A DNA stretch of 64,000 bases from Euglena gracilis (Eukaryota). Every line of letters starts with the position of its first letter. Position 1 is the first letter of the stretch. Positions 26,373 through 61,483 of this stretch are shown piece after piece. The notes under the pieces were generated by a model that ran no database searches, was not told the DNA's origin, and saw nothing but the letters and a program-made list of their open reading frames with translations. The stretch is taken from positions 12,952,716 through 13,016,715 of the forward strand of contig CP154954.1 in assembly GCA_039621445.1 (NCBI GenBank), in the 5' to 3' direction. Made by a program: the position numbers and the translations under genes.

Positions 26373-28353
26373 ACCCTAACCCTAAGTTGTACCCTAACCC
26401 TATTCCATCATTAACGGAAAAAAAATTTGACCCCCCCTCCCAACTATAGGCCCCCCCCTGGGGGGCCCTATGGTTGGGAGCTGCCAATTTTGACCCCCCT
26501 CCAAACTCTAGCCCCCCACCCCCTGGGGGGCCGGGCCCAGTAGTTGGGAGCTACCAAAATTTTTAGCTTTGGTCTCTGGACAGGCTGGATTTACCCCAGG
26601 GGAGGGGAGTCCAAGGCGAGGGAGAAGCATTCAGGATGCAGCAGCCTCGTAATCATGTGAAACTCTCCGTTCTGACACGTACTCACATAACGCAAGCAAG
26701 GGCTTGAACTGTGTCAAACCTTGGGGGTAGCAGCAACCACCACTGGCACGCTTCCAACTGCTGGTGGTGCCAGAAGGGGGATTTCGTTTGGTTATATGTA
26801 TTGTGTAGATGCGCATTTTCCAACTGACCAACATCTGCGCATTCACACCTTCCTTTCTACCAGAAGGGCAATCTCTAACAAATACACCCTCGATTTCTGC
26901 CCTCGTCCTCTTACACACACCGGACCAATTAGAACCTTCCAATTGGAAACAGATGCCACATCACCGGACCGTAGGCCCCACCCCACTCAAAACCACCCAT
27001 CACATCCATACCACCCCAATTATTTTCTCCAAAATCCCTCAATTGCTGCCCCGGCGGGGTGAAGGGGTTGGGCAGCGTCAACTGGAGGTCACCTCACATT
27101 CTAGGGTAGGGTTTTGGGGATCGGTTGGGCAGGCACCCCTGTCCGGTGCCCGGTCTTGTTTTCTTTACCCTTTTTGCAAAAACCAACCCGACCCGGGGTA
27201 CCCCGGGCTACCCCCCTCGGGTGGTGTGCCTGCTAGGGGCAGGCATCTTATGGCACTCACCCCCACTCCCCCCCTGTCGGTAAAAACAAAACCTCACAAG
27301 CACTTCAAGGTTCACAAGCACTTTTGTAGTTTATGGCCAATCTCATGCCACCATCCGAGGTATGTGCCTCTCCCGTGCACCCATAGTGCCAGTCGGTGCC
27401 CGCCAGCTGAGAAACAATGAAGAAAACCTTGTGATCCCTGCACCATTGTGTCGTGCAATGAATCACGTCATCAAAAGTTGTTCAGTTTTGGGGTTAACGG
27501 AATGTTGCTTTTGACATATTATTGTTTTTCTGTTGGGTTTTTTAATTCGGCAGCCCATTTTGCTCACTCATTTGTGAGTGTCCAGTGGTTTTTCCATGGC
27601 CAAAGAGTATTTAAAACGTCTATCAATCGATAGGAGGGAGCAGGTTTGGAGGGACACGTTTCATTTGAGATAGCTGCCTGTGCAGCCATCTCCCAGCCGG
27701 AGCATTGCTATGTGCTTCAGAAAGCAACTGTTTTGCTTCATCATATTTGCCCGACAATGGTGGATTTAACCTCATCCCACACTTGGACGGCATTTGCAAC
27801 GTTCCGTTCCATCCGCCCCCACCCCCACCTTTTCCCAGGCAAGCCATCCTCCCAACAAAATGCTCTCCTCTCTGTCGCTGCCCTGCGGTGCCGATGTGCG
27901 GGTTGAGTGGACGGGCTCCAGAGCGGCTCGGACGGCGTGCAGGCGATTGCCGTGTTTAGCCGAAGGTTGGGGTATCCTTCTGTGACAATCATGTCCCGAA
28001 TCGTAATCTTCCCTGGATGGGTATGCTTTTTATGATTGCATTGGATTGCATACAATTTGTAAATATAGGACAAAATAGTACGCAGGGTCGTCGACCATTG
28101 TTTTTGTATGGGTCTGCAGCACGCCGCTTCCACCAGAGAGTGATTTCCAGAAACAAATTCATATGCTCGCGCCAACAATCAGCGATTTTTTATTCATTAC
28201 TCGTCTTTTTTTCCCCTGGATATTTCATTCTTGAGGGGGTTGTGGTCGTTGGGTTATAGAGCCATCGTTGTTGCTATTTACCATTTGGCCCAGTCGGCCC
28301 TCTCAGTGCCAACCAGGGCCGATTTTGCCGATACTCGTAGGGCTGGTGGGGAA

Positions 28354-29958: not shown

Positions 29959-30947
29959 GTGTGTGCTTGAGTGTGTCTGTCTGTATATTGACAAGCATAA
30001 ATAATTTGGGCGTCCAAAGTCGGGGGACCTAAATTCACTTGATATGAGAGGGTGAGTTCTTGCCAACAATATCAGAACAATAAGAACTCAGAACAATAAT
30101 AAAAATTGTACCGTGTGTTTGCCAAAAGCAGGCTGCTATTCCAGTATGACCCTGTGCTCGCCTTGCACACCCCACTCCCTCCAGCCCCGCCAGCTCGGAC
30201 AGCAGTGTTGGGACCCACGGTCCATTCGGCAGGAGCCCTCCGCTCACCCCGGCGGTGACCACGCCACCCGTTCTTCCACGGTGGTCGTGTGGCTCTGTTG
30301 ATTGCCACCGACTTCGCCTTATCATGAAAACCACACAACTGCCGATACTGGAATTCTTGTCCAGCTGAAGAGGTGGAAGGATTCTGAATTTGAGAAATGG
30401 AAAGGCAATGTAAAATAACCTTATTTCTTTTGTGCTTCCGAGAGTATACCGTAAAGTGCTTGGTGGAGGTCTTAAATGCATTTTTTTCTGAGGTAATAAA
30501 TGTTGCATAACAATTGGTTATTTACAATATTGCTTGTGGCAGTATACGTTTTCAGTAACGAGAAGCCTTGTCTTCTTTTCTTTCACACTGTCAAGTGTTT
30601 TTCCTACAGTTTTTTTTTTGAATATTTTTTTTAGGCTCTCAATCAGGTGTAAGGTTTTGTCACCAGGGTGCAATTGTGTGTGCAAAACAGATGCTATTGC
30701 CGAATTGTATGCCATGCCACAGATAGCCCCGCTTCTTGAGGAGCCTCCCCATTTCACTGCAAAACCCTCCGACGAGGGTTACCCCACTGCATCACAGACA
30801 CACAACCAGGTTTGTTTCTGTGACAATCATGTCCCGAATCGTACAGTGTCCCCTGGGAATCTCTCTCTCTCTCTCTCCTCTCTTCTCAATCGGTGTTGCT
30901 GGGGGTTGCCGACCATGTGTGGGTGCGTGTGTTGTCAGTCTGTTGTT

Positions 30948-31020
30948 GCGGTTTCGCCCCAGGCTGGCAGGTCGGGTATCGTCAGGGGTGACGACCCTGC
31001 CGACCCTCGTCCCCGACCGC
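30948..31020 (-). ncRNA. Type III hammerhead ribozyme (intact core)
   Basis: Minus strand reads GCGG-UC|GGGGACGA-[GGGUCGGCAGGG]-UCGUCACCC-CUGACGA-U-ACCCG-[ACCUGCCAGCC]-UGGGGC-GAAA-CCGC. It has the CUGANGA and GAAA boxes, a GUC site and three stems. The base of stem II is imperfect. Confidence 0.85.
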
Positions 31021-31300
31021 TCTTGTATGTGTGGTGCAGACCGTTAAAAACGAGCTCTGCGCCACCCTCCCAGGGGGGGGGGGTCGGGGGGCTGAAAAAA
31101 ATAGCCCCCGGAAAACAAGGCAGCGCAGGACGGAAAAATGGCTCCGCTACCTACGGGGCACCCCCGGGAACAGCACCATTTGGGGAGGGCTAGTCAAGGC
31201 CCTTTTGGTGCGGAGAAAGACAAAATTGCCGAAAAATACGGACAGTACCCGAAGGCGAGAGCGTGATCGGTGTGGTGGGCGTGTGTTGTCAGTCCATGTT

Positions 31301-31373
31301 GCGGTTTCGCCCCAAGCGGGCAGGTGGGGCATCGTTACGGGTGAAGACCCTGCCAACCCTCGTCCCCAACCGC
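31301..31373 (-). ncRNA. Type III hammerhead ribozyme, degenerate core
   Basis: Same scaffold with perfect stem II GCCCC/GGGGC and a GUU site, but the core reads GUAACGA. Confidence 0.7.
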
Positions 31374-31470
31374 TCTTGTCTGGGTGTTGTCAGCCTGGGT
31401 GTGTTGGTTGCTGGATGGCTGGCTGGACTCCGAGGGTGGGGTCCCCTCCGGCTTTTAGGAAACCCTTGCA

Positions 31471-31519
31471 TACCCCAGTACCCCAGTACCCCAGTACCCC
31501 AGTACCCCAGTACCCCAGT
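31471..31519. repeat. (TACCCCAG)6 octamer repeat (also 61581-61629)
   Basis: Direct reading. Confidence 0.95.
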
Positions 31520-34500
31520 GACACTGTTCATTCATTCGTTTTGTTTGAGAAGTTGTAGTTGGTCCGTTTACAATTTCGGTGCCGTTCCACCCAGCAGGAT
31601 GGACAGCGAAGCGGCCTGCTGCTGATAGCCAGTCTCCCCATTCCCTCGGTGCCCATGCCACGCCTCTGCCAATCGCGACCCTTTGCTTTGTTCATGACCC
31701 ATATTCGTTCAACTGTCCCTGGTTTGAAGCCAAGAAAATTCTTCAATGTCTTTTCAGAGGAGCCTTGGAAGCACAATCCAGTCATTGTTTTTCTGCTTTT
31801 CAAGTTGTATTTGCCGTCTTCCAGCATCCCCCCAACCAGCAGTTTCTTATTTTGGCTTGCTGGATCCCCGGATTCTGAAACAGCCAGAGAATCAGCAATT
31901 CATCAATGGCTAGTTCATTTTGACAAACAATCAGAAACATGTTTGTAGAAGCGTTTTTCTTGTGGCCAACCAACCCACGACCCCCACACTCAAGAGAAGT
32001 TTGGCCAGCTATTTTTTTTGTTTCTAACGTCTTTTTACAACGAGTTGCATAGTCGTCAGGGCATTTCTTTTTCGTGTGTCGTAAATGTTATGGCGTAATG
32101 TACACCATTTTTTTTTCTCAAAAAGGAGTTTAAAGTCAATTCCTTCAGTATTATTTTTAGGTTTGCTTGGAAACCAATTTGCAAAAATTTTGTCATGTGG
32201 ATACCAGGGACTGCGCCAACGGACCCCGTGCCATATGCTGACGACCCATCCCAGCACCTTCCTCTCGGCCTGAGAATGGAACGCCAAGTAAAAACCCTGT
32301 GTTATCAGTGGGGTTTGTCACCAAAGACATTGGCTGAGCAATGTATAATTTAATAAGGGACAATCAAAAAAGGTTGGGCAATGGATGCTTTCCCACCCCA
32401 TTTGAAATGGTACATCTGATATACAAAAGGCTTTGGGTCAATATATTATATTTTTTTGCATGCAGCTGTTCTTCGTTTTCACATTGCACACTGTTCCCAT
32501 TCACAAACCTTAAACAATTTACACTGAAAACAGGAAAAAAGGTAGCTGTGCATTTCATGAGGCAAACGAAAGAACAAGCAGCATGTTTTCCACAATTTCA
32601 GCCGAAGGGATGGATTGCGCAAATGCGTTACACTGACCATGTGCACATTTGCACACACCATCCATTTGTGTACAGACCCCGAGGCAGGTAAAAGCGAAAA
32701 CGTTCATCAAAAATTCCAGGGGAGAAGCAGGAGAGAAACAATGGGTGTAGGGTGTGTGTAGGGGGGAGGGTTCCGGGACTGTCGTGCATACCAGGGATTT
32801 TGTGTCGTGCAGAAATAAAACAGCCAAAAAAAAAGAAATTCGGCCAAAGCTGTGGAGTGACAGCCCCAAAAAAAGAGAATTCGCTCAGATCTCTCGCAGT
32901 CATGATCCCCCTCGATCCAATTTCTCAAAGTTCTGGAATTCCTTGCGAAGAAATAAAATTCCGTTAGTGTATGTGTTTGCGCACACCAACCAAAAGAAGT
33001 TTATTTGTGAGTTATGCCGTCCAAGTCAGTGAAAAAAAGTGTACTCCTGGCATTTCACCCAGTTGTCAGTTCCAGGTTAAATCAATTTCAATTCAAAATC
33101 AGTTTCAATCAATTTCAGTCAGTTTGGCACCCACCCACCCACTGTCGGAAAGGGCTGTTATGGCCAATATGGCTTTGGCCTTTATATTCCAGTGGTTGGC
33201 CATTCCCATGTTTTCCCTCCACCGCTTTTCCACATCACGGCCTCGGTAGCCATACGGCCACCGTGCAGGCCATATTTTTTTTTTAGGTCACCCCTCCTGC
33301 TACAAGTTCACATGTGCTGCTTCTCTTTTCCAATCACTCACATTGTCCATCACCCTTTCTTTCTTATCTCCCCCCATTCTCTTTCTGACTTCTGTTTCTG
33401 ATTCTTTCTTTTTTATATTTTTTTGAATTATTTTAATGCCGGAAAAAAATAGAAAAACAACGTAAAAAAAATAAAAAACACAAAAAAAAAAAAACGTAAA
33501 CAACAAAAAAAAAAAAAAAAAAAAAAAGTCAGGGGGATTGGAAAATTGCGATTCTTTTTGGAAGAGCATTTGGAACGCCCCTCGCACAATCTCCCATCAA
33601 CAACTATCCCAGATGATTCTGGGCCTGTTTCATTGGAACTTGGTGCTCCAGATTGGCGGATGTGTTGCGAGTGTGTTATTTGGGCAGCCAGACAGACAGG
33701 CAGACAAAGACAGAAAGAGTGAGAGGGAGGGGATAGGTGGATAGGGGATAGGTGGGTCTGCCAGGGCTTTCGGGAATCCCCAAAACAAACCCCAATGGGT
33801 AATGGGCGGTGGGTGGGGTGGTCGATCCCTAGGGGGGGGGCTGCACAGGCAGGTGGGATGGTCGACCAGATAGGTGGTCGACAACCCACCCATCCAAGCC
33901 CGCAGAGAAAATTCTGACCTTAAAACCAGTATTATGGGAAGGCCTTGCAGGTATGGGGGGGGGGGCACAAGGCTCTTGGGGTCCCCTGCTGGAATGCGGG
34001 GTTTCGGCTATTTTTGGCACGAAAGACCGACTTTTTCTAACCCCCGAAATGTGGGGACCTGCTGGGAGAAACCCTGGGTCGGTGCGCCTGGCAGGGGGCA
34101 TGGGTACCTTCCCCTTGTCTCTGAAAAAATACCTGATTTATATGCAAGAAAGGGAGGCAGACAGAGACAGATATTGGTTGTTTCATGCATTGCATTTCAT
34201 TTTTATAATTTCAATGTAGTTATCCTCTGACACAAATTGACCAAATATTCCGGTACCTGGGGCATGTCATTTTCCAAACCTTTTTTTGCACCGTTGCTTT
34301 TTGACATTCGGGCAGTCACCGTGAAGAATCTCGATGTCTGCTGGGTGGGAGAGAAAAAGGAAGGTCTCCCCGCCCTGTTGCCATCACTCAGCGATTGTCG
34401 CAAAGTCCATTTTCAGTCCAGAGGATAGTTGAGAAGAACGGATAGCTCCGGTTGCCACAGTATTTTTTTTATATTTAAGTTAAAACAGGCGCAATGAACC

Positions 34501-38278: not shown

Positions 38279-41200
38279 CAATTTTCTGGCTAATTTCATC
38301 ACTCTGACCGTTTTTGACCGTTTGAGGGACATTTTTTTTGACCAAATTGCCATTTCTGGCCACTTTTAGCAACTGATGTCAATTTTTTGCTAGCTTGAAC
38401 AGCGTCAAGCTTTAAACATTCAGGTCAAGACATTTTGAGTAATGTGTTACCCTTTCTGCTCGTAATCATCATTTTCAGCATTTTATTGTGATATTTTGTT
38501 GTTTTACTATTTTTATTAGTAAAAAAAACATGTTCATGGAGCCAAAGTATCCAACAAGAGCGCATTGGACTTGAATATCTGGTCGGCTCGTCAATTCACA
38601 AATCATGTCAGTGGAAGACCTTCTGAAAACGAATATTTTCTGAAATGGATTCACATCACCGAAGCTACATTTTGTCAAACAGGAAAATATGCCTTTTTTT
38701 CGGCAAGAATGTGTGTGCAGAGAGTGGTCCAGTGCTCCACTGATGTGCTTCTGGGTCTTGGATGGGCGTACAGAAAACGGTCAGCAGCAGCACAACAGGA
38801 ACTAACGTGTTGTTCGCACAAGATACCCTGTGCTGTAATACGGTAGCGGCGAAGTGCATTTGACTGTTTGAGAGGGCTTCCAAGGCAGCCAACCCAGCGT
38901 TGGATACACAAAGCCAGGCGGTGGTCCATCTTATGGTTTGAGGAGCCGGGGAGTGCCCCCCCCCACCTAAACTGTGGCGTGATGGATTATCGGTGCGGCA
39001 CAAAAGAACGAGGAGATTAAAGCAAATCAGGTACCCGCAAAATAGGATGTGGCTAATACAGTACAAACAAAAAAGGAGTTGCTTGCCCCCTCCAGCAGAA
39101 GTGTAAAAATACAAAAAAACCACAATTCCCGCAATTTTACATCAATTTTTCCGCAATTTTTCCGAAAGTATATCAATTTTTCACCTCCTGGTGATTAAGC
39201 AAAAATTCAAACGAGAACACCCCAAATAAGACCCCTGGTGCGAAGCGTCGGGGAGGGCGAATTTTTTCCTGAAATTTTTGGGGTTTACCCCAATAATCCC
39301 TCATTTCTATCTGGTATTGTTTTTGGGCGTAGCGCCAGAGGATATTTTGTTTGCTTCTTTTGAAACCTGCCAAGGAGGGGGTTGCGGTCCAGGAACTCTC
39401 CCAACGTCTGGGGGGGGGGGACAAAACCTGCCGAAAAAAGCCACACCAAATACCCATTTTCACCTGGGCGAGCAGGCAGTTGGGATGGGTTTTTCAGTTG
39501 GAGGAGCCTGGAGGACCAGGACCCCAGACCTCCCAGGAGAAAGGGGTCCAGCCAGTGGCTTTTCTTGTGGCTAGTTTTCGGACCGCCTGGGGTCCCAAGA
39601 CAGATCCTGGCTCTGATTATGAAATAGGTGTGTGTGTGTGTGTGTGTTTATGTGTTTGTGTGTTTGTGTGTTTGGTTTTTGATTACAGGTCTTTATTTTT
39701 CATTGCAAATTGTCCCATCATGCTGCACTGGTCCTGCACCTTTACACCTGCGATCTGACACAAGGTTTTCAAAATTCATTTGCGTTCGGCCCTGCTTGCT
39801 GGAGAACAGTAAGAGAACGCTTTCTTCCTTCCTACCTCATTTGTTGCACTGCGACCACTTTGGCCGTGCCATGTCTTTGCCTGTGGAACAGAGGGCTTTG
39901 TTTGTGGGCCAATTGAACTGCACTCGAACCATCCACTCCGCTGGTGAGATTGTGATCAAAGCCTGCTTTTTGCGTTTTTCCCTTGTTTGACTCCCTGTGC
40001 GCGTGTTTTCAGGTGTCTACCCCCGCATCAGTAATGAACAGGGGGTCCGGACCTTCCAGTTTGTCAGCTTTTATAGCAATCAAATGCCATACACTCACGC
40101 TCAAAGAATTAGCCCTATTCGGAATATTTTGGTGTCCATTCGGTTTGGGGGGGGAGGTCCATGAAATATTATTGCACAAAAATATTGACCTTCCTTTTTA
40201 TGGATTCCAGAACATTTCACATCACCAAGTAGTCAACCAACGATGGTGGGTCAGGTGTGAACCGTCACTGCTTGATGGGACAAGATGCCACAATATTTGG
40301 CACAATGCAGCTTTCGCGGCATGGCACTTTTCCAACCCATCATGGAACCATGGCAACTTGCTAACATGTATTTTTTGCAGTTTCGACTTTTTTATCCAGT
40401 TCGACCCCAGCAGCCTTTGTCCATTCAGCCCTCAGCCCCCCCCCCCAAAGCTACGCCTAAAGCTGATCTGAAATTAAAGCTGAGTATATCCTATGATTTA
40501 AAAAAAATATATAATACATGAGATGAGGTATGCATTCTGGTGGTCCCATCCACCCTCCCCCTCCGCCTAGGAGTTGGACACATTCCGACGGTTGCCACGT
40601 TGGAGTATCGCATTCAGGAAGACCTAAGCATTGCCACAGCAGCTGAAGCTTCCAAGAACAGAAATTTGGAAACAGGGTTTATTTTTTTTGATCTGATCGT
40701 TTTTGGGCATTTTTAATTTATTTCCTTCTTTTGGGTAATTTCGAGCCTCTCTGTTTTGATTCAGAACTCCTGGCGTCTTTTTTTTTCCTCCGCCCAGGTT
40801 CTCGGGGGAGAAAAAGATTCTGGTCATTAGGTGGTTTGATATCAGAGTTCTTTGGTGATGTGTCTTACTCTTGTTCCCATCAATGCAATACATCTTGTTG
40901 TATTTCTCAGCAGGAAAACACACACACACATCAGGGTTATCCCCAAATGAATACGAAGAAATTATTGTAAATTAACAATGTATTGTCCCAAAAAATTTCT
41001 GATAGCAGAATTGGGGAAGGATAATAGAAGGAGCAACTCCTTTTTTTGTTTTTATTGTATTAGCCATATCCTATTTTGCGGGTACCTGATTTGCTTTTAA
41101 TCTCCTCGTTCTTTTGTGCCGCACCGATACGCCACAGTTTAGGCGGGGGGGGTCAAACCATAAGATGGACCACCGCCTGGCTTTGTGTGTCCAACGCTGG

Positions 41201-42324
41201 GTTGGCTGCCTTGGAAGCCCTCTCAAACAGTCAAATGCACTTCGCTGCTACCGTACTACAGCACAGGGTATCTTGTGCGAACAACACGTTAGTTCCTGTT
41301 GTGCTGCTGCTGACCGTTTTCTGTACGCCCATCCAAGACCCAGAAGCACATCAGTGGAGCACTGGACCACTCTCTGCACACACATTCTTGCCGAAAAAAG
41401 GCAGCTTTTCCTGTTTGACGAAATGTAGCTTCGATGACGTGTGTGTTTCTGTGGTCGGCTCGTCGTTTTGTGAAAATTTTCTGCCCCCCCCCCCCAGCAG
41501 CAGTGTATTAATTACCAAAACCGCAATTTCCGCATTTTTTTGCGCAACTTTCCCGCAATTCCCGCAATTTTTCAGCAATTTACCCGCAATTTTTTCTGAA
41601 GTCCTCCGATGTCAATTCCCCCCTCCCTGCGATGAGCAAAAATTAGCCCCCTTGTGCGAAGAGTCGGGGACCGTAATTTTTTCCTGAAAAAAACTCTGGA
41701 AAGAGACCTGAAAGAAACTGCCACAATCCCTCGTTTCTATCTGGGATGTCTTTGGGCGTAGCACCGGAGGAAAATTTTTCGCATCTTTTGAAACCTGCCG
41801 AGGAGGGGGTGTTTTGCGGTCCAGACACCCCCTCCCAACGGCGGGCTGTCACGTCACCCCCAGGGGGGAGGTCCAGATTCCAATCAAATTCAATACTGGA
41901 ATGCTTCCCATTCCTGGTGATCAGGCTCCCCCATGAGGGTTCACAGTACAACCCTGGGGGGGTCGACTGCAGCTAGTCCAAATTTGGCTTGGACCCCCTG
42001 GGTGAGTTCTGCTTGCAGGCTAGGTCGTTGATTTTTTTTACAAGTGACCAGCGCGAAGCACCAGAAAAATTGACTGGCCAAAACCTGCCAAAAATGGCCG
42101 TTTTGCAGGTTTTGCATTTTTTTGGGAACAAAACCAGCCGAAAAGTAAAAAAAAAAACCACAAAAACTCATCTCCACCTGGGCCAGCAGCCAGTTGGGAT
42201 GAGTTTTCCATTTGGCGGACCTGGGGGACCCAAACTCCGGACCTCCCAGCAGAGAGAGGTCCAGCTAGTGGCTTTTCTAGTGGCTAGTTTTAGGACCCCA
42301 AGGCAGAGCCTGGCTCTGATACAA

Positions 42325-48400: not shown

Positions 48401-51400
48401 ACGCTCCCCCCTCCGGTCTGCACGGCAGCGCTGACTGCACCGCCAGTGCACCGGGCCTTCCACACGCGCTTAGCCGCCGCGAGTCGCACACTCTTGGGTG
48501 GCAATGAAATATTTCCACCCCTGGACTGACCCTATGTAGAAAGCCATCAACAACCGTTCACATGTCTCTGTCTTTTGCTCTTTGCCAATTTCATCATTTT
48601 AATGCATTTTTTCCCGAAATTTTTACGGCTTTTTAAGGTTTTTTTAAGACATTTTAGGTCATTTTAAGGCTTTTAAGGCGCTATTTTCCAGGATGGTCTA
48701 CGGGTTATCCAACCAACGTTTTTGATTTTGAATGTTCTCCAAAATCAAAAAGTCTGAGGAACACATTTTTTTTGAGTTTTGGTTCGACAAATAATGTTTC
48801 AGCGATGCCAGAAATCATCTTCTTACTGGAGTTGGCTCATTTTTGGCGAGGTTTTGTGCCTTGCTATTTGTTCGGTCGGAGAAAATTCTGCCAGTCCAAG
48901 ATTTTAAGGCATTTTAAGGCGTTTTTGGCAAAAACTTTCTGGTATATTAAAAGTATTATATATAGTGTAGGTATTATTCTGGTGCCTTAAAAGGAATAAT
49001 GCCTGGCCAGGAGGAAGGTGCTGGGGGTGAACTGTGCCAGCCAGATGGGGCCAGACGGAGTCAGACAGGAAACACCACAGCAAGTCCCGTGAAAAAGAAT
49101 CCACCCAATGAAAGCAACCCCTTCGTGAGTATCTTTTAAATTTCCGCAACCCTTTCAATAATTTGTCCTGAAACCTTAATGCAAGCAACCTTCAAATAGA
49201 AACAACCGCTAACCAGATGCCATGAAGATAAATTTTATGAAAATTGCATTGAGCGACTGAAAAAAGCAATCCAAATTTGAGCAACCCCCGAATTTTGATC
49301 AATTTAAACCTTTTTTCGGAAACACATATGTAGGACTGGTGTTTCGGGGGATTTAACAATCGAAGCAGGGGACAGACATGGGACAGACATGCCTTTTTCT
49401 CCTCTTCTAAGATACAATGTGCCATTGCTTGCCCGTGCCAGGAACAATACACACAAATATTGACGTGTTTTGAACAGGGGGGTGTGTTTCGCTTGCTAGT
49501 TCAGGGGAGGGTGTCTCTCCTCTAAACAACCCCCCCCCCTCAGTGCTTCGCCCTTTGGCTTGTTTTGCTCATGGCCCAAAAAAACCCGTTAACCAGCAAA
49601 ATTGTCCTCTTAAGATTCATCCCCCGGCCTTCTCTTCATCTGTACTGGGTCAAAGCGCTGGGTGGGGGTTATGTCAAAAAAGCACTGCAATTTTGACTAG
49701 GCAGAATGCATCTCTTTACACTGCGCTCTCAACCTGGCGATGGTTCTGATGTGCAAGTTGAATTATTTACATTTTTTTGCACAACCCAAAACTGTAAATT
49801 TTTTCGAATTTTTTTTGGGAACTCGCCAAAATGAAGTTGCATAAACATATTTTTCGACCAATTCCATATCAGCAGTAATTGCATCATAAAATATGCAAAT
49901 TGTGCAAACCAACCATGCCATTTTGCATATTCCGTGTCAGGTTTTCTTTTGGTGAAGCATTTTCGCTGTTTATTCGTTTTTTTTTGAAGAAAAAGAAAAT
50001 GATTATGTTGTGTTTATGTTATGTTAAAAAATGGTTGTGTTGTGTTATGTTTTTTTATTCCTGGCACAGAAAAGTGCAAATAATTTTCTGAAGAACACAT
50101 TGTGTTTGCATATGGTGATGGTTTATTTGCAGCATTTGCACACATTAATCACCCAAAGACACCAGCAATGTTTGTGTGGACAGAGTTATAAGAAAACAAG
50201 TGAAATAATACCACAGTTTCATCACATTTATTTTCCAGCTCCAAACGTTAAGGCTCTTGGTTTGTTTTAAAGTGGTTGGGGCACAAATGCGAATATCGTC
50301 CATGTATGTAGTTGCGGACATTGACATCATTTTTATTGTGGTGTGGATGTCACAGAGTTTGGATATAATAGTCACTGAACTCTACTGGTAACCGATTGCA
50401 GTCCTCCTATGTGTTTTATCCCCTCACCAACAACCAGTCGACCACCGGTGGCATATTTAACAGCGCTTTCTACCTATTTATTTTGTTGCATGTGAATTTC
50501 CACTCTTTTCGGAACCAAAAACCTTCACAACGCAGGGCTTCGGAAAGCAACCAAAAGGGTGGGTATGTTACCCCACCCCCGGAAAACCACGTCCCGCTGA
50601 CAGTAGTGTATATACAAACATGCATACAAAACATACACATATATGCCTGATATATGCCATACATATATAGATATGTGCATATACACGTAAATGTACATAT
50701 ACATATGTCCAAACAGCTGCCATGTGTATACATATACACATGTATATACGTATGTATAATGTATATGTGTATACATACACATGTGTAATACACACATGCA
50801 TACACATACGTAAACATGCACACCCCCGGGGGGGCCAAGTAGAGTGATCCAGGGGGGGGGTCGTAGAGAGTGATCCGCGCCTGGGCGTTTTGTCCCTGGG
50901 GTCCACCCCTCTGTCAAACATATCGTGAAATTGAAAGTAAAGATTAAGATTATTTAAATAAAATTTGAATTGCAGATTTATATTTAAATTGCAGACCAAA
51001 TTTAAAACAACGACTCTCCCAAAAAATATATGTCATTGTTTGCACAACCATTCATGATCACACAGTTGTATGTCCGTTATGGCGTCTGACACAGTACAAT
51101 AAGCAACACTTTTTGTTGCGGGGTCCGTCCACAGGGCTTTTTGTTCCTGCGACGCGTGCCAATGACCGCCAGCAAAGCCACTTCGCCATGGCCGCTGAAG
51201 GGCCCGGTTGCCAGGTGGACCGCGACCAGATGGGCCCGGGGGGCAGTCAACTATAGCTAAAATGGCCTAAAATGGCCTATAATGGCCTAAAATGACTTTT
51301 TGACCCCCTATCTTAGGCGGCACGAATTGCCCAAATTTTTTGGCAGTTTTTGAGTGTTTAAATTGCGCGGGTTTCCGAGTACATTGGCCAGGTGTTCTCC

Positions 51401-51961
51401 CGCTCTTTTCTGTTTTTCACATTTTTGGGCCGTTTTGGGGGGGTGTTTGCCCAAACTCCCCTTTTACGGCCATAAATTTATAAAATCGTTCATTTATCAA
51501 ATGACTGAAAACAGACATAAACGTGCTCAAAATTTTCAGTTCACATCAGCGCCTAAAATTTTTGAGCACAAAAGTGTGGGGAAGCGGGCGGGGGCGGGCA
51601 GCCGGTCGACCCAGGGCCGGAGGCGGGCGGCGGCGGAGGGTTGGAAGAGCCAAGAGCCGTCCCGCCCTGGCCCACGTAGTACCCATTCACCACTCCGCGG
51701 CCATGCCGCGGGAGATCATGGAGCTGCAGGTGGACGCGGTGGTGGTGGAGATGCTGGACGGACTGAGCGACGCGGACGTGTACCCGGAGCAGCTGCGGGC
51801 GGCTGTGGAGCAGGGGGGTCCCGTTCGTGGCGACGGGAAGGCGTTCGCCATCGGGGTGCTGCAGCAGGCGCTGGTGAAGACCATGGACGTCCCGGAGGAC
51901 CTTCGCCGGGTGGACGTGACGCTGCACCATCCGGTCAAGGCCGCTGCCGACCGCACTTACC

Positions 51962-52202
51962 CAGGGGGGGGGAAATTATGTGGTCCGCATTATTCCGCAT
52001 TATTCCGCATTTTTCCGCATTTCCGCATTATTCCGCATTATTCCGCATTTTTCCGCATTTTTCCGCATATTTTCCGCATTTTTTTTGTAAATTTTCCGCA
52101 TTTTTCCGCATTTTCGCATTTGACCGCATTTTTTCCGCATTTTTCCGCATTTTGCCGCATTTTTCCGCATAATTTCCGCATTATCCCGCATTTTCCGCAT
52201 TT
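51962..52202. repeat. (ttccgcat)n degenerate array with CAGGGG start, likely a truncated hAT MITE inside the transposase
   Basis: About 20 copies of ccgcat spaced by T/A runs. Confidence 0.8.
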
Positions 52203-53219
52203 CAACCATGCCAACAGAAATGTATTTGTTTAGTCTCCAAAGCTGGTTGCTGTTTGTCTCTGCGGAGCACATTCTTAAATCTCTGTGGGTTAATGCCCAT
52301 TGGTTTCTTTGTGTGCCTCACAAATTGCACGGCATAGGCAGTTTGATGAAGTCTGACCGCTCTTTTGAAGGGCAAGGATGGATGGACGTTGTATGTTTCC
52401 AGAAAGGGTGGATTTATTTCCTTAAGGACCGCCCCCCTTTCGGCCAAAGGGCCGGCCAAGGGTCAGGCTGGGACTTGAACGGGGGCAAAATTTTAACAGT
52501 CAATAAAACACAGTTTTCGATGATTTGGGTGGATGGGCGATGGTTCAAGGGTGCCAGGAATCAATTTTTTTCCTGATGTCGACCTGTTCTCGCTGAAAAA
52601 TGCCAAAAATTCTTGCCCATTTTATTGTATATTTTTCACTGAGTGTGCTGGGACAGCAGAGTTTTTTTTTTATTTGCTTAAGGACCGCCCTGATGTTCAT
52701 GCATGGTTTTCACATACCATTGTTGCCCCACTCGCTTCTTTAATCGATGATTTGTTTGCCACATATTCTTTGCTGAAATGTCCCGCTCATGCTGCCAGGC
52801 GCCGTCGTTGGGTCGCTCACCTCAAGGCGCACCTGCATGCGGTGACATTGCCACCGCAAGTTGTGTGCACCCGATGGAACGCCTGGCGTGACATGGTTTC
52901 TGGTTGCGGAAAAGCAGAAGTCATGGTTGACCGCGCTTTGTGGCATCTAGACAACTTTCAATTGTGGGGCACGTTTCTTGCAGACGAAGCAAAGAAAATG
53001 CCGTGGAAGCCCAAGGAGTCAGAAAAGGGTAAGCAGAAATCCAAGGAGATCCCCCCGTTGTTGCATCGGGTTGCAAAGTCACAGGAAACCCATGGGAAGG
53101 GCTTGTTATTGCGGCTGGTTTTCATTTCAGACCATGGGGAGCCTTTGGATATTTGTTTGAATTGTGCGCAGGCTGACCGTCCTGTAGCTTGTTATTTGTA
53201 TGACTATTTGATGAACCTC

Positions 53220-53293
53220 AACCAAGCTTTTGCTCAATCACGTTGTTACAATGGTTTTTTTGACATAATCTTTTTGAGCAATCGCTTTTCATC
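53220..53293 (+). other. Candidate non-conventional (non GT-AG) intron, 74 nt
   Basis: tcaa direct repeat; stem aagc..ttgctcaa / ttgagcaa..gctt; C|A at both junctions. Removal joins the two ORFs as YLMNLKALWDSTISSAQFSPRLEEQL. Confidence 0.65.
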
Positions 53294-53370
53294 AAGGCGC
53301 TTTGGGACAGCACAATTTCATCTGCGCAGTTTTCACCCCGCTTGGAAGAGCAACTGACCCTTCTTTCATC

Positions 53371-53406
53371 GTTCAGGACCCTTTTTTTCAAAAGGGTCCT
53401 AGTTCA
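53371..53406 (+). other. Candidate non-conventional intron, 36 nt
   Basis: CAG at +4..+6 and CTA at -8..-6; 11-bp stem aggaccctttt / aaaagggtcct. In-frame removal gives LLSSVQAQFLRD. Confidence 0.55.
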
Positions 53407-54120
53407 GGTGCAAGCCCAGTTTCTGCGTGATATGTTCATCAGAGTTTTGAAATCGTTGCAGGACGGTTTGAATGTTCGCTTTGAGAAAAGCAAGGAACAA
53501 ATTGAGTTTTATCGTCAACTTCGTGTGCTCAACCCAAATAATTTGCCTCTTATGTCATCAGCTCCCACAGATTACTCAGCGTTGCGTTTGGATGGATGTG
53601 ATGAAGATTTCATACAATATTTGCAATGCACAAAAAGGGATATTGACGGCCCAGAGGAGTTAATTGAATGGTGGAAGACACACCGGACATCTCTTTTTCG
53701 TGAACGTGTTTTGTTTCTGATTTCCTCCCCGGTCGCCACTGCAAGTGTGGAAAGGTTTTTTTCCATTTGCGGACAGCTGGATGCCGATCAGTGGGCTTTG
53801 TCACATAATGCACGGAGGTTGGAATTCATGCTTCAATTTAATGGTGATTTGTCTGGGCGTTTCACCTCCCTCTGTGTGGGTTTCTGTGTAAACAAACAGG
53901 GCACTTTTTACATGGAAACCCGCACACCCACCCTGTTCTAAAATCAAATGTGAGTGTTGCATTGCACCCTGTGAGCTTTATTGTAAATCCAGAGAAGATG
54001 TTGCTGTTTTTTTTAATGTCTCAAGAATATAAGGGCTCAGTTGTTGTCAAATGTGGTCATGGAGTCAATCAGACAAACATAATTGAGCCAAGGGGTACAT
54101 TGTGTGATTGACAAGACCTC

Positions 54121-54841: not shown

Positions 54842-57800
54842 TTCTTTTCAGGGTCTGAGATCGTAAAAATTTTCAAGCCTATTGTACACGTTCAAGAATG
54901 TGGGTGAGTGAATGGACAAAGACCACTCAGTGTATATAGATGCGGCAGTGTTTCGCTTGCCCGACAGCCCATCATCGTGTTTAAATAAGAACATCGTATT
55001 GTACGGCCACTTCAAGACCAGCGTTCGAATCTTTACGTGGGAATCCGCCCACAACTACATTCAGTTTGATTCAAACCAAACGTCATGGACATAGACCATT
55101 ACTCACTGTATTGTAAATTATTTCTACGCGGGTTTCCTCACACTGGTGAATCACACATGATTTGTCCTTCCTTATTAAAGGAAATCAGTCTTATTCTCAA
55201 GTTGGGCGGGTTCCCGTGTATATCATGGAATACTGGTGTTCAGAATGCTTAAATTCAAAGCCGGTGGGTGCAACAGGACCCAGAGTGGTTCGTACGGCGC
55301 AATCCTGAGCGCAATTACAGGTAAGACTGCCCTCCAAAACCACAGGATTTGGGATTTTGTCGCAATTCAGGGTGTTTAGTGGTACAAGTGGACGTTACAA
55401 TTCTCGCGATTTGTCCTCGCTCGCTAACGGGATGTACCGCTGCGACGTGACCTCCAGGAAAGCCCCGTATTCTGAAGGGATGTGCTGCGACTTGTGCGGA
55501 AAACCGCACAAGCTGCAGCACCAGGTCGTGGAAAGTGACTGCTTTTGGGTGGTGTTCGGGGAGCAACGGCCAGCCCTACGGATCTGTCTCGCGCACCTGT
55601 CAGGGTTCGTAAACCAGCGGTGTACCACCAACCACCCTGAGCCGCAAAAGGGTCCCAGGTAACCGTGGTGGGGAGGGGTGTATGGCACGACATCGTGCGG
55701 CCCAGACGGGCGTATGTTCCGGGTCCCTCCGGTGGCCCGGAGCCACCCCCCTCGGCGGAACTGCTACCAGCTTCCGCTTCACTTCTCCTCCGTCACGCCA
55801 TCCACAGAAAAGCGAGACAGGGACCGGTACGGACGACAACGCCGCGTACCGCGGGTATCCTGAGAGGGTACCCATCCATTCAGGGTTCGGTCAAAAAAAA
55901 GTAGGCAAGTCACCGCACCGGCGGGAACCAGTGGCGTTGCCCGCTGGGGTGGGCGGTCCTAGGGAGCTCGGCCACAAGAGGCCGTTACAGCCACTTGCCC
56001 AACCTACCTCCCTGAAAATCGCACTTGGGCCGTTCAACTTTTGCGGAACCACTGTTGGTGGTCACGTCGGCGGTTACACCAAATGAAGGCCTCGCGATCC
56101 AGATCCTGTACAAAAGCGAAGGGGGGGGGTGGCATCGGATCCGTACAGAGGAGCGCTTCACCGCTCATCGCTGGTATGTTGTACGCGGAAACCCGCACAC
56201 AACGTCCCCATCCTGAGACCACACCCACGCCCCAACCTCGCTCCCTACTCCTCTCCCTCAACAACACACACACGCCTGTCCGCTCCTCACACCCTTAAAA
56301 CCGTCCCCTACACATTCTGGTCGCAACTACTTTTGTACCACCAAACATCCAGAACGCGGAACACACACGACACGCTTGGGCAGGTCTGGGCAGCCTGTCC
56401 TGGTGGTGCGGGGAGGTCAAAGGACCACCCGGGCTCCTCACTGTCTTTTGTGTAGTCAGCACCCAAACCGTGTGTGCGGATTCTGCCCTCGTCCTCTTAC
56501 ACACACCGGACCAATTAGAACCTTCCAATTGGAAACAGATGCCACATCACCGGACCGTAGGCCCCACCCCACTCAAAACCACCCATCACATCCATACCAC
56601 CCCACCCATCACATCCATACCACCCCAATTATTTTCTCCAAAATCCCTCAATTGCTGCCCCGGCAGGGTGAAGGGGTTGGGCAGCGTCAACTGGAGGTCA
56701 CCTCACATTCTAGGGTAGGGTTTTGGGGACCGGTTGGGCAGGCACCCCTGTCCGGTGCCCGGTCTTGTTTTCTTTACCCTTTTTGCAAAAACCCACCCGA
56801 CCCTGGGTACCCCGGGCTACCCCCCTCGGGTGGTGTGCCTGCTATGGGCAGGCACCTTATGGCACCCACCCCCACCCCCCCCTGTCGGTAAAAAAAAACA
56901 ACCTCACAAGCACTTAAAGGTTCGCAAGCACTTTTGTAGTTTATGGCCAATTTCATGCCACCATCCGAGGTGTGTGCCTCTCCCGTGCACCCATAGTGCC
57001 AGTCGGTGCCCGCCAGCTGAGAAACAATGAAGAAAACCTTGTGATCCCTGCACCATTGTGTCGTGCAATGAATCACATCATCAAAAGTTGTTCAGTTTTG
57101 GGGCTAACGGAATGTTGTTTTTGACGTATTATTGTTTTTCTGTTGGGTTTTTTAATTTGGCAGCCCATTTTGCTCACTCATTTGTTGTTGTCCAGTGGTC
57201 ACCATTGTCGAGCAAATATGATGAAACAAAACAGTTGCTTTCTGAAGCACATAGCAATGCTCTGGCTGGGAGATGGCTGCACAGGCAGCTATCTCAAATG
57301 AAACGTGTCCCTACAAACCTGCTCCCTCCTATCGAATGATAGACTTTTTAAATACTCTTTGGCCATGGAAAAACGATTTAACCTCAACCCACACTTGGAC
57401 GGCATTTGCAACATTCCATCCGCCCCCACCCCCACGTTTTCCCAGGCAAGCCATCCTCCCAACAAAATGCTCTCCTCTCTGTTGCTGCCCTGCGGTGCTG
57501 ATGTGCGGGTTGAGTGGACGGGCTCCAGAGCGGCTCGGACGGCGTGCAGGCGATTGCCGTGTTTAACCGAAGGTTGGGGTGGTATTAGCCTTCCCTGGGT
57601 GGGTATGCTTTTTATGGTTGCATTGGATTGCATACAATTTGGAAATATAGGACAAAATAGTACGCCGGGTCGTCGACCATTGTTTTTGTATGGGTCTGCC
57701 GCACGCCATCGTCAAATGCTTCCACCAGACAGTGATTTCCAGAAACAAATTCATATGCTCGGGCCAACAATCAGCGATTTTTTCTTCATTACTCGTCTTT

Positions 57801-58999
57801 TTTTCCCCTGGAGATTTCATTCTTGAGGGGGTTTGTGGTCGTTGGGTTATAGAGGCATCGTTGTTGCTATTTACCATTGGCCCAGTCGCCCTCTCAGTGC
57901 CAACGAGGGCCGATTTTGCCGATACCCGTAGGGCTGGTGGGGAAGCTTGGGAATGCGGTTGTCCAGGAATCGGTTCCCGCACCCTCAATCATGAACTCCT
58001 TGGGGCCAAAGGGAATATGAAAATGAATGAAAATGGATTTGTGCGGCACAGGAAAAAATGACAGATGGGTGACACATGGCAACCCACTGGGTATTGGCAA
58101 CAGACGGTGCAGGAAGGCAGGAGAGGCATCCCCCACAGGAGACATTTCCTGTGCATCCACATGATGTACATTGCAAAATATTTAATAATTTCGAAATAGG
58201 AACACTCTGTCAGAGTCAGGGGCAGGTGCTTTTTTAGTCTTCCCCCCCCCAGGGGAGAGGGGGGCAGAGTGGGCCAGGGGCCAGGGGGTTCCCCCAGGGG
58301 GGGGGTCCAGCTCAGAGGCTGGAAAATTTGGGCTGGCTAGAAAAAGACTCCTGGCTGACGCCCCCCCCCCCAGGGGGTCCTGGACTGGAGCTGGGCGCGT
58401 GCACCTCGTGCAGCACCGCATGCGCCGCATGGCGCACCGTGTGCACCATGTACATTTTTTTCCAGAAATTCTCTGCATGAAATTACTCAGTTGATTTTGC
58501 CGTGCTGAAGCTGGAAAAACTGTGCTGGCTGGATCCCTTGGACCCGGCTGGCACCCGAAAGCTGGCAAAAAGGCCCAAATACACCTGTCTTGGGTTTTTT
58601 TCCGGCCAGTTTATTGAGGTGTGAATTTAAATAACGACAAAAAAGGGAATTTGACATTCTTTTTGGCCATTATGGACCTCTTTTAATCATTTTTTTTGGT
58701 TCTGGCCGGTTTTGCTGCCCTGTGAAGATTTTATTGACACTCACTCACTCTTTGGGGGGGGGGTGTCAGCCATCCGAATGGCAGTTGTTCGCTTGAAAAA
58801 ACGGTGCTGGCTCGGACTCCCCGGCAGGGGTGGGGGCAGGGGGGTCCATTCCCAGCCTTGACGATGAAAAATGTATGACATTGTTACAAGTATCATTGTG
58901 TGGTTTTGAATCATGATTATTTTGGATTGGCATACCCTCCTGAACCTCCGGCCAATTACGTGCCGGCTGGAACACCAAATTCAGAATGAACCATGGAAC

Positions 59000-59108
59000 C
59001 AGGCTTCTTTTTAAGTCAGCAGCCCCCCCTCCCCCCCCCCGGGGGGGGAGGGGGGTGGGTGGGTCCGTGCCGGACCCCCCGGGGGGGGGGGTCCCGCGCA
59101 GGAGACGC
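59000..59108. mobile_element. Truncated copy of the 28354 MITE family, copy C only
   Basis: Starts caggcttctttttaagtca; absent at paralog 29345. Confidence 0.7.
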
Positions 59109-61056
59109 TCGTGTAAGGGACCACATATGCACAGTGGCCTGGGGCTGCTGAAGCTCTTGCAGTCCCATCACCGCCAGTTGGCCATCCAAGTCGGCAGAGC
59201 TCTTGCTGATAACTAAGGTTCATTTATTACCATTTGAACCAATTGCCATAGTTAAGGTGCATTTACTAATATTCGAACTCCAAGCCTCCAAGCCAATACA
59301 CCTTTGTTGGGTTTTATACCAATTTTAAAAATGTTTTATATTTGTTCTATGTTCCATTTTTTTCACATTCTGGCTTTATGTGCAATAACATAACTCCTCC
59401 CTCCCGGTTTCTGATGATTCTAGGTCCAGTCCATCTTCCCTGACCTTTTGGATCCTTTTTGCCAGGGCTCCTAGTTTCAAAGGTACCAACTCCTTCCACA
59501 TTGGTTGACCAGTTTGACTGAGCCCAGTGTGTGTGATTGCGTATTTTTGCAACTTTTGGTCCACCGCCCTTGCGTGACGAAAAACTTTGAGCATCTTCCC
59601 ACTTGTTCGTTTTGTGTTGTTGTTGTTGTTGTTGGTTTTTCCTGTCTTTTTTTGCTGCATTTGGCCAGGCAAAAATGCATTCCAACAACGTGTGAAGTGT
59701 TCCATGGGTCATTCCCAAGTTAAAGCGCGCCCACCTCACTGCTCCATACCAGCAAAGGCTCTTCAAGGACGAAAGGACATCCCCACCGACGTCACCGTTC
59801 ATGTCTGTTAGCCCCGGCCTCCATTCCCTGGCTGATATGTCCCGCTGCAGGGTTCTCCTGTAATGTAAAAGAGTGGTTATGAGTTTTTTTGTCATTGTTG
59901 TGTGTGTGTGTGTGTGCTTGAGTGTGTCTGTCTGTATATTGACAAGCATAAATAATTTGGGCGTCCAAAGTCGGGGGACAGGGCGCTGTAAGTTGGGTAG
60001 GATGTAAGTTTTTGGTGTGTAATTTTGGACAGCAACATATTATGCAAGCTGTTTATGAGTTGCACCGAATGTTTATTCTCACATGGGGCAGGGGATTGGT
60101 TAGGTTCCGGTTCCGGGTTCCCCCCATTGGTATTTTTCCCTCCTAAATTCGCTTGATATGAGAGGGAGTTCTTGCCAACAATATCAGAACAATAAGAACT
60201 CAGAACAATAATAAAAATTGTACCGTGTGTTTGTCAAAAGCAGGCTGCTATTCCAGTGTGACCCTGTCCTTGCCTTGCACACCCCACTCCCTCCAGCCCC
60301 GCCAGCTCGGACAGCAGTGTTGGGACCCACGGTCCATTCGGCAGGAGCCCTCCGCTCACCCCGGCGGTGACTACGCCACCCGTTCTTCCACGGTGGTCGT
60401 GTGGCTCTGTTGATTGCCACCGACTTCGCCTTATCATGAAAACCACACAACTGCCGATACTGGAATTCTTGTCCAGCTGAAGAGGTGGAAGGTTTCTGAA
60501 TTTTAGAAATGGAAAGGCAATGTAAAATAACCGTATTGCTTTAGTGCTTCCGAGAGTATACCGTAAAGTGCTTGGTGGAGGTCTTAAATGCATTTTTTTC
60601 TGAGGTAATAAATGTTGCATAACAATTGGTTATTTACAATATTGCTTGTGGCAGTATACGTTTTCAGTAAAGAGAAGCCTTGTCTTCTTTTCTTGCACAC
60701 TGTCAAGTGTTTTTCCTACAGTTTTTTTTGAATATTTTTTTTAGGCTCTCAATCAGGTGTAAGGTTTTGTCACCACGGTGCAATTGTGTGTGCAAAACAG
60801 ATGCTATTGCCGAATTGTATGCCATGCCACAGATAGCCCCGCTTCTTGAGGAGCCTCCCCATTTCACTGCAAAACCCTCCGACGAGGGTTACCCCACTGC
60901 ATCACAAGACAACCAGGTTTGTTTCTGTGACAATCATGTCTTGAATCGTACAGTGTCCCCTGGGAATCTCTCTCTCTCTCTCTCCTCTCTCTTCTGAATC
61001 GGTGTTGCTGGGGGTTGCCGACCATGTGTGGGTGCGTGTGTTGTCAGTCTATTGTT

Positions 61057-61129
61057 GCGGTTTCGCCCCAGGCTGGCAGGTCGGGTATCGTCAGGGGTGA
61101 CGACCCTGCCGACCCTCGTCCCCGACCGC
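61057..61129 (-). ncRNA. Type III hammerhead ribozyme (intact core), paralog of 30948-31020
   Basis: Identical by eye to 30948-31020. Confidence 0.85.
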
Positions 61130-61410
61130 TCTTGTATGTGTGGTGCAGACCGTTAAAAACGAGCTCTGCGCCACCCTCCCAGGGGGCGGGGTCGGGGGGC
61201 TGAAAAAAAAATGGCCCCCAGAAAACAAGGCAGCGCGGGACTGAAAAATGGCTCCGCTACCTACGGGGCACCCCCCGGAACAGCACCATTTGGGGAGGGC
61301 TAGTCAAGGCCCTTTTGGTGCGGAGAAAGGCAAAATTGCCGAAAAATACGGACAGTACCCGAAGGCGAGAGCGTGATCGGTGTGGTGGGCGTGTGTTGTC
61401 AGTCCATGTT

Positions 61411-61483
61411 GCGGTTTCGCCCCAAGCGGGCAGGTGGGGCATCGTTACGGGTGAAGACCCTGCCAACCCTCGTCCCCAACCGC
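61411..61483 (-). ncRNA. Type III hammerhead ribozyme, degenerate core, paralog of 31301-31373
   Basis: Identical by eye to 31301-31373. Confidence 0.7.

Follow-up and report, generated by a model that had tools for sequence, protein, structure and literature searches.

The window analysed here comprises 64,000 nucleotides of Euglena gracilis contig CP154954.1 (assembly GCA_039621445.1), and its central feature is a repeat insertion that carries two hammerhead-like ribozyme motifs on the minus strand. The insertion spans 30903..31406 on that strand (∼504 nt, or ∼1.4 units of 353 nt), with approximate edges that were placed where the depth of public DNA contigs rises from 23-600 to 22,000-630,000, between bins 30859-30895 and 30896-30932 on one side and between bins 31377-31413 and 31414-31450 on the other. 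Both motifs resemble type III hammerheads and have the same sense; copy A, recognized from sequence and alignment, lies at 31301..31373 and copy B, recognized from sequence, at 30948..31020, giving a start-to-start spacing of 353 nt. Cleavage is predicted between 31368 and 31367 in copy A and between 31015 and 31014 in copy B. A preliminary description of this DNA had proposed the same two minus-strand hammerheads, cleavage positions and 353-nt unit, and these coordinates were confirmed in the sequence.

Each motif is embedded in one of two minus-strand direct repeats, at 31270..31393 and 30917..31039, which local alignment revealed to be ∼124 nt long and 86% identical. The direct repeats of the preliminary description are therefore present, but they are slightly shorter than the 130-150 bp it gave them. 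The upstream repeat, which was also recovered by a repeat search, is 5′-truncated in comparison with a family-conserved module of ∼166 nt (30917..31082, minus strand) that is common to the expressed members of the family and is delimited by loose read ends in the RNA library X24 at 30917 (41 reads) and 31082 (9 reads). Between the repeats lies a non-coding spacer (31040..31269, minus strand) that is also multicopy, with a DNA depth of 20,000-132,000 in bins 31081-31265. The element is thus ordered as a 5′-truncated module A, the spacer and a full module B, and its two modules differ by 14%. As previously proposed, the 353-nt unit contains no credible open reading frame (ORF), the longest minus-strand ATG-initiated ORF touching the monomer encoding 61 amino acids of low complexity. 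A 14-16-nt motif, GACUGACAACACAC in the RNA sense, was observed just 3′ of each hammerhead-like module, at 30925-30940 and 31279-31294. A diverged form of this motif is present 5′ of copy A at 31380-31395, and in the dominant expressed family RNA it occurs twice in tandem after the module (loose end 30917).

The repeat search also returned an 8-nt direct repeat, GTTGCTGG on the plus strand, at 30895..30902 and 31407..31414, exactly at both of the depth-defined edges of the element. Given that four 8-nt repeats were found in a stretch of 621 nt in which, by our own calculation, ∼3 would be expected by chance, this pair is no more than a tentative candidate for a target-site duplication. No empty-site paralogue of the element was found within the 64-kb window. 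The length of the candidate duplication prompted consideration of a hAT-type miniature inverted-repeat transposable element, which was rejected since the ends of the element are not inverted repeats. A tRNA-derived short interspersed element was likewise rejected, there being no tRNA gene in the region and no Rfam family match. The flanking DNA includes a perfect microsatellite, (TACCCCAG)x6, at 31471-31519 (and again at 61580-61630), ∼60 nt from the element edge, and a (GA)n tract at ∼30860-30886 on the other side of the element; neither simple repeat directly adjoins it.

Inspection of copy B reveals a stem III of GCGGU/ACCGC, a GUC site with C17 at 31015, and a stem I of 3+5 bp that contains a bulged A and is closed by a loop of 12 nt. 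Its core is intact, comprising GUC, CUGACGA and GAAA, with one extra U after A9 that is present in all copies. Stem II of copy B is weak, consisting of an A.C opposition, three C-G pairs and a G.G opposition, and has been weakened by two private substitutions at 30973 and 30977, where 99.8-99.9% of contig depth carries the other letter. Copy A has a clean 5-bp stem II (GCCCC/GGGGC), a GUU site and one C.U mismatch in stem I, but reads GUAACGA in place of CUGACGA, by which C3 and G5 are lost. The invariant positions of the hammerhead core (C3 U4 G5 A6 N7 G8 A9, G12 A13 A14, A15.1-U16.1 and H17) are consequently all present in copy B, and in the family consensus described below, but not in copy A, which is predicted to be catalytically dead as a hammerhead. 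That the two copies are damaged in different places, stem II in copy B and the CUGACGA box in copy A, had been noted in the preliminary description and holds; as both carry disabling mutations, the locus itself is predicted to be dead.

The whole element recurs in the window at 61009-61560 with 97.8% identity and with identical hammerhead segments, the duplicates of copies B and A lying at 61057..61129 and 61411..61483, respectively, on the minus strand. This second element provides no independent evidence because it is part of a ∼30-kb segmental (tandem) duplication, in which 26895-33780 matches 56481-64000, with weaker matches from 3280 onward, at 80-98% identity. A 175-nt local inversion is present inside the duplication (27588-27762 versus 57200-57374).

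Public DNA contigs (run X1) and RNA reads (runs X21 and X22 and the size-fractionated run X24) were aligned to positions 30600-31700. The summed DNA contig depths are relative depths rather than copy numbers. The module at 30933-31080 reached 335,000-628,000, the spacer 20,000-132,000 and copy A 85,000-161,000, as compared with 150-1,000 in the flanks. The locus is thus a member of a very high-copy repeat family.

The majority letters of this family differ from copy B at four sites, given here for the plus strand: 30973 C>G (470,570 of 471,562 depth in X1), 30977 T>C (494,932 of 495,499), 31002 G>A (398,325 of 399,663) and 31027 A>C (556,413 of 558,167). At each site the majority letter was carried by 99.7-99.9% of DNA depth, and it was also found in X24 reads having the first mate on the plus strand (47/47, 46/46, 40/40 and 29/31 reads, respectively). 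No deviating row was present in GUC, CUGACGA, GAAA, stem I or stem III. The changes at 30973 and 30977 restore stem II to GCCCC/GGGGC and, given that the core is unchanged, the family consensus is a complete type III hammerhead motif. The preliminary description had claimed as much for the consensus of the two copies, and the majority letters of the family, read from independent DNA contigs and RNA reads, agree with it. Five differences between copies A and B are relevant to the ribozyme, and all five resolve in its favour in the family consensus; we roughly estimate the probability of this outcome at ∼0.03 if the motif were meaningless.

Three of the deviations of copy B are private to it, unlike the letters of copy A. 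Across 31246-31402 no deviating rows were seen at a depth of 85,000-161,000, and no 31-mer within the motif is identical between copy A and the consensus. The core-dead A-type subfamily must therefore itself be abundant, at about a quarter of the level of the intact type. The sharing of A-type letters among many copies shows that A, spacer and B were later amplified together as one composite; at least part of the amplification therefore appears to have taken place at the DNA level or in composite form. The locus had been described as a relic of a ribozyme-processed family; a high-copy family with a complete consensus does exist, but copy A is not a private relic, its dead-core letters having been amplified.

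The consensus was built by script from copy B with the four majority changes and was examined with a type III descriptor that, in its strict version, calls for a stem I of 8 bp, a stem II of at least 5 bp and a stem III of 5 bp and allows the extra U, the bulge and loops of up to 14 nt. The relaxed version calls for 3, 5 and 3 bp. The consensus passes the strict descriptor with a stem I of 3+5 bp, a stem II of 6 bp and a stem III of 5 bp, and its topology is that of an open helix III with helices I and II capped. Strict matches were absent from 2 × 30 Mb of Markov-1 random sequence; the relaxed version gave four matches where the 30 Mb had been trained on the window and none where they had been trained on the element. 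In the consensus, 11 of 12 positions of loops 1 and 2 are able to pair, and six Watson-Crick pairs between GGCAGG (loop 1) and CCUGCC (loop 2) form the core of this contact. About 40% of hammerheads, across all three types, have Watson-Crick pseudoknots of 4-6 bp that join stems I and II, and these are needed for fast cleavage (PMC3088659). The same survey (Perreault et al. 2011) links the difference in length between stem I and stem II to type III pseudoknots, a difference that is 2 bp in the present case.

RNA from the family was evident in X24, where the module had a depth of 18-51 with the first mate on the plus strand and ≤5.5 with the first mate on the minus strand. Given that the host gene lies on the plus strand and that its exons in the same library had the first mate on the minus strand in 5 of 5 reads, the family RNA is of minus-strand, hammerhead sense. 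In X21 and X22 the host exons had depths of 10-34 per mate direction and the module ≤5. The module-to-exon depth ratio was therefore ∼17 in X24 as compared with ∼0.1-0.2 in X21 and X22, an enrichment of family RNA over host mRNA of ∼100-fold in the size-fractionated library. The reads diverge from the locus beyond 30917 and 31082, which indicates that they come from other members of the family. A-type RNA had a depth in X24 of 0 with the first mate on the plus strand and ≤0.76 on the minus strand; only the core-intact type was seen as RNA.

Our preferred interpretation, to which we assign a probability of roughly 0.55, is that the locus is a dead member of a repeat family of a euglenid, and that this family bears a genuine hammerhead, is abundant and is transcribed in the sense orientation. 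The consensus of the ∼166-nt module would be a type III ribozyme made up of a GUC site, an 8-bp stem I with a bulged A, CUGACGA, the extra U, a stem II of 5-6 bp, GAAA and a 5-bp stem III, with GGCAGG and CCUGCC as kissing loops. Members of the family would be transcribed on the hammerhead strand. Stem I would form first during transcription, so that the ribozyme fold may win kinetically and cut after GUC, and the released unit would then refold, burying the CUGACGA box in a hairpin of greater stability. Such units may persist as small RNAs, possibly circularized, and might be copied back into DNA as has been proposed for retrozymes. A copy that is longer than one unit and 5′-truncated, as seen here, would be compatible with a circular or multimeric template having been reverse-transcribed. 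For the family as a whole we only infer catalysis, circles and retro-mobility. A fuller version of this interpretation, in which an active, massively amplified type III kissing-loop hammerhead repeat spreads through Euglena by reverse transcription of circularized RNAs, is put forward tentatively and we would not expect it to hold in all its parts.

The points that weigh against a genuine hammerhead family are best considered together with an alternative in which the family is an ordinary high-copy interspersed or satellite repeat, its transcript being a GC-rich hairpin that contains a hammerhead-like core by coincidence, through a palindrome, and without catalysis. We regard this, the leading alternative, as possible though doubtful. 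The hammerhead secondary structure of the consensus was calculated at -27 to -28 kcal/mol, as compared with -37.5 kcal/mol for a nested fold, ∼10 kcal/mol more stable, in which the 3′ strand of stem I (UCGUCA) is the pairing partner of CUGACGA; as the most stable fold of the consensus, this palindrome explains part of the core. Two readings of the nested fold can be offered: it may belong to a conformational switch of the kind found in viroid-like RNAs, or it may be how a non-catalytic repeat really folds. Co-transcriptional folding would favour the ribozyme because stem I is transcribed before the CUGACGA box. The extra U between A9 and stem II in the consensus core is a further departure from the standard motif. 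De la Pena and Flores reportedly described, in 2001, an extra nucleotide at this place in a natural viroid hammerhead, where it is tolerated.

Of the checks that had been proposed in the preliminary description, a search with Rfam hammerhead models was negative, there being no match to Rfam at the gathering threshold in the whole window and no hammerhead at E ≤ 10 in the 1.1 kb around the element. RF00008 scored copy B at 12.1 bits in a 101-nt search (E 4.3; gathering threshold 48.5), which is not significant, with an alignment that runs end to end (model positions 1-54) in exactly the predicted register. The descriptor check divided, the consensus passing the strict version as described above while none of the four window copies passed, even in the relaxed version. 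The minimum-energy folds of copies A and B are not the hammerhead, and the 353-nt monomer of the locus folds no better than shuffled sequence (z -0.62). Neither window copy is significant alone. The descriptor was, moreover, written after the candidate had been seen, and Markov sequence is poorer in helices than real repeats. The four window copies represent only two distinct sequences, between which the differences break pairs and give no covariation, and no compensatory change was found in any stem of the family, which at ≥92% identity is too uniform for the test. The abundance of the core-dead A-type subfamily, which itself was amplified, means that an intact core is not needed for amplification in that module. 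There was no pile-up of read ends at the predicted cut between 31015 and 31014 in X24, where reads at a depth of 33-44 extend across both sides, although the same picture would be expected from circles or uncleaved RNA. No go-back joint was found among the RNA runs, in which reads were aligned to the diverged linear locus. Finally, a scan covers very many windows, such that rare chance motifs are to be expected somewhere.

Coincidence would nevertheless have to account for a consensus in which all invariant positions are present and correctly placed among three helices of the right topology, and for the absence of any comparable motif from 60 Mb of random sequence at strict stringency. Given its composition, copy B forms a hairpin of unremarkable stability (z -1.41 against shuffles), the five ribozyme-relevant sites all fall on the side of the ribozyme in an independent consensus, and the type detected as RNA is the one with an intact core. 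If the hammerhead is genuine, the family could still be a tandem satellite amplified as DNA, in the manner of newt satellite 2 or schistosome SM-alpha, with transcripts that are cut to monomers but neither circularize nor retrotranspose. Its very high copy number and the multicopy nature of the higher-order alpha-spacer-beta composite are what such a satellite would display, and modules that are 14% diverged and yet have A-type letters common to many copies fit DNA-level amplification better than fresh cDNA. However, the locus holds an isolated intronic stretch of 1.4 units, sharply bounded in depth and possibly flanked by an 8-nt duplication, which looks like an insertion and not an array, and we consider the satellite explanation unlikely. 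Most improbable of all would be a strict plant-type retrozyme with long terminal repeats (LTRs), a tRNA-Met primer site, a polypurine tract and a 4-bp duplication. The type III topology recalls such elements, as do the two motifs of one sense within direct repeats on either side of a non-coding center, but the repeats measure 124 nt rather than 300-400 nt and are 14% diverged, no TGG-initiated primer site adjoining 31270 and no purine tract adjoining 31039 could be discerned by eye, and the candidate duplication is of 8 nt, not 4.

The element lies in antisense inside an intron at 30804..31623 (plus strand) that was defined by RNA joints. The joint 30803 to 31624 was supported by 9 reads in X21 and 12 in X22, and an alternative joint, 30796 to 31624, by 26 and 15 reads, respectively (62 reads for both joints together). 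On the plus strand the intron has the ends AAC-CAG ... CTG-CTGCT|G, which fit the code N3CDG..CH'G N5-6|R that was defined genetically for the nonconventional introns of Euglena (PMC12501133); no such fit is obtained in the reverse orientation. The known occurrence of these introns is limited to euglenids and diplonemids (PMC6221363). Neither of the two mapped introns has GT-AG ends in either orientation, and the preliminary assignment of the DNA to a euglenid, here one of Euglena type, is supported by these features. The first intron, at 30327-30683, departs from the Euglena code and is marked at its two junctions by AAAAC, a direct repeat of 5 nt.

The exon upstream of the host intron (30684..30803, plus strand) had an RNA depth of 10-34 per mate direction in X21 and X22, and a loose RNA end at 30684 leads back to 30302-30326. 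Because the intron code fits the plus strand and a plus-strand frame of ∼190 codons is open across three exons, the host gene is placed on that strand. It appears to be an expressed, multicopy gene of unassigned function with exons at 30140-30326, 30684-30803 and 31624-∼31880; several paralogous variants were present among the RNA reads, its DNA depth was 150-1,000, and its last exon has no Pfam match. Elsewhere in the window, three consecutive plus-strand ORFs of 272, 274 and 199 amino acids occupy 51354-53941. A Pfam search of 10 window ORFs gave only a sub-threshold match to the hAT C-terminal dimerization domain (17.4 bits versus 21.4) at 53342-53941, which may represent a decayed hAT transposase. 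An inverted duplication of ∼430 nt with 91% identity was also found, its arms ∼2 kb apart at 38652-39083 and 41032-41441.

Other occurrences of the motif were sought in public collections (596 Gb) with an IUPAC pattern of 21 specified bases that covers both copies and the consensus. No match was obtained in metagenome contigs. The sole match in genome contigs, at L001 2032-2056 in a Blastocatellia metagenome-assembled genome, was dismissed as chance because it lies inside a bacterial coding region and has neither flanking similarity nor an Rfam hammerhead.

No paper linking a hammerhead ribozyme with Euglena or Euglenozoa was found among those judged by title or abstract, and the preliminary description, too, knew of no ribozyme-processed mobile RNA family described in euglenids. 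Genomic hammerheads and retrozymes are reported as type III in plants and type I in animals in the available text of a 2020 review, a 2011 survey and a 2026 preprint; in that text, euglenids, Discoba or protists do not appear as hammerhead hosts. If the fuller interpretation were true, the family, with a depth thousands of times that of the flanks, would represent, in Discoba, the first case of a retrozyme-like system from neither plants nor animals. It would combine the ribozyme topology of plants with the non-LTR layout of animals and would insert into the nonconventional introns that dominate these genomes. A genuine hammerhead family of this abundance in Euglena would in itself bring ribozyme-processed repeats into a third eukaryotic supergroup and would represent a type III, non-LTR intermediate form with bearing on the origin of retrozymes and viroid-like RNAs. 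One major component of a genome that is large and poorly annotated would also have been identified.

Comparison with type III hammerheads (RF00008; PMC3088659) shows the same open helix III and closed helices I and II, the same GUC, CUGANGA and GAAA elements and likewise complementary loops 1 and 2. The element departs from RF00008 in the low score of copy B (12.1 bits against the gathering threshold of 48.5), in its loops of 10-12 nt, the bulged A in stem I and the extra U. Two hammerheads in the same orientation, here 353 nt apart, are the classic tandem layout of hammerhead repeats (PMC4918200, PMC7761336). The LTR retrozymes of plants (Cervera et al. 2016, PMC4918200) share with the Euglena element type III hammerheads in direct repeats around a non-coding center, and many of their genomic copies likewise carry point mutations that kill the ribozyme. 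Their LTRs of 300-400 nt, tRNA-Met site, polypurine tract, 4-bp duplications and RNAs of 600-1000 nt have no counterpart here. Hammerhead satellites such as newt satellite 2, Schistosoma SM-alpha and cave-cricket pDo500 (PMC4918200, PMC6155905) are similar in being abundant repeats of a few hundred nucleotides with one hammerhead per unit in their transcripts. These satellites are of type I and from animals, whereas the Euglena family is of type III. Within Euglenozoa, the L1Tc/NARTc retrotransposons of Trypanosoma cruzi carry an HDV-like ribozyme at their 5′ end, a case of a self-cleaving ribozyme associated with repeated mobile elements. It belongs to another ribozyme class and another lineage, the kinetoplastids, and no HDV-like Rfam match was present in the window.

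The layout of the element resembles most closely that of the non-LTR retrozymes of animals (PMC7229834; bioRxiv 10.64898/2026.07.22.740005), which likewise consist of non-coding units of 150-400 nt with same-sense hammerheads, have no LTR, primer-site or polypurine features and show high copy number and small RNAs. The 353-nt period over ∼1.4 units is that of a short-unit, non-LTR layout. Animal non-LTR retrozymes are metazoan, are tied to Penelope-like elements and carry type I hammerheads, so that the Euglena element is not one of them by definition; it is of type III and GC-rich, with one core-dead unit, and no autonomous element could be linked to it here. If the preferred interpretation is correct, the family would bring together an unusual mix of features, namely a type III hammerhead, a non-LTR layout, kissing loops and an extra U.

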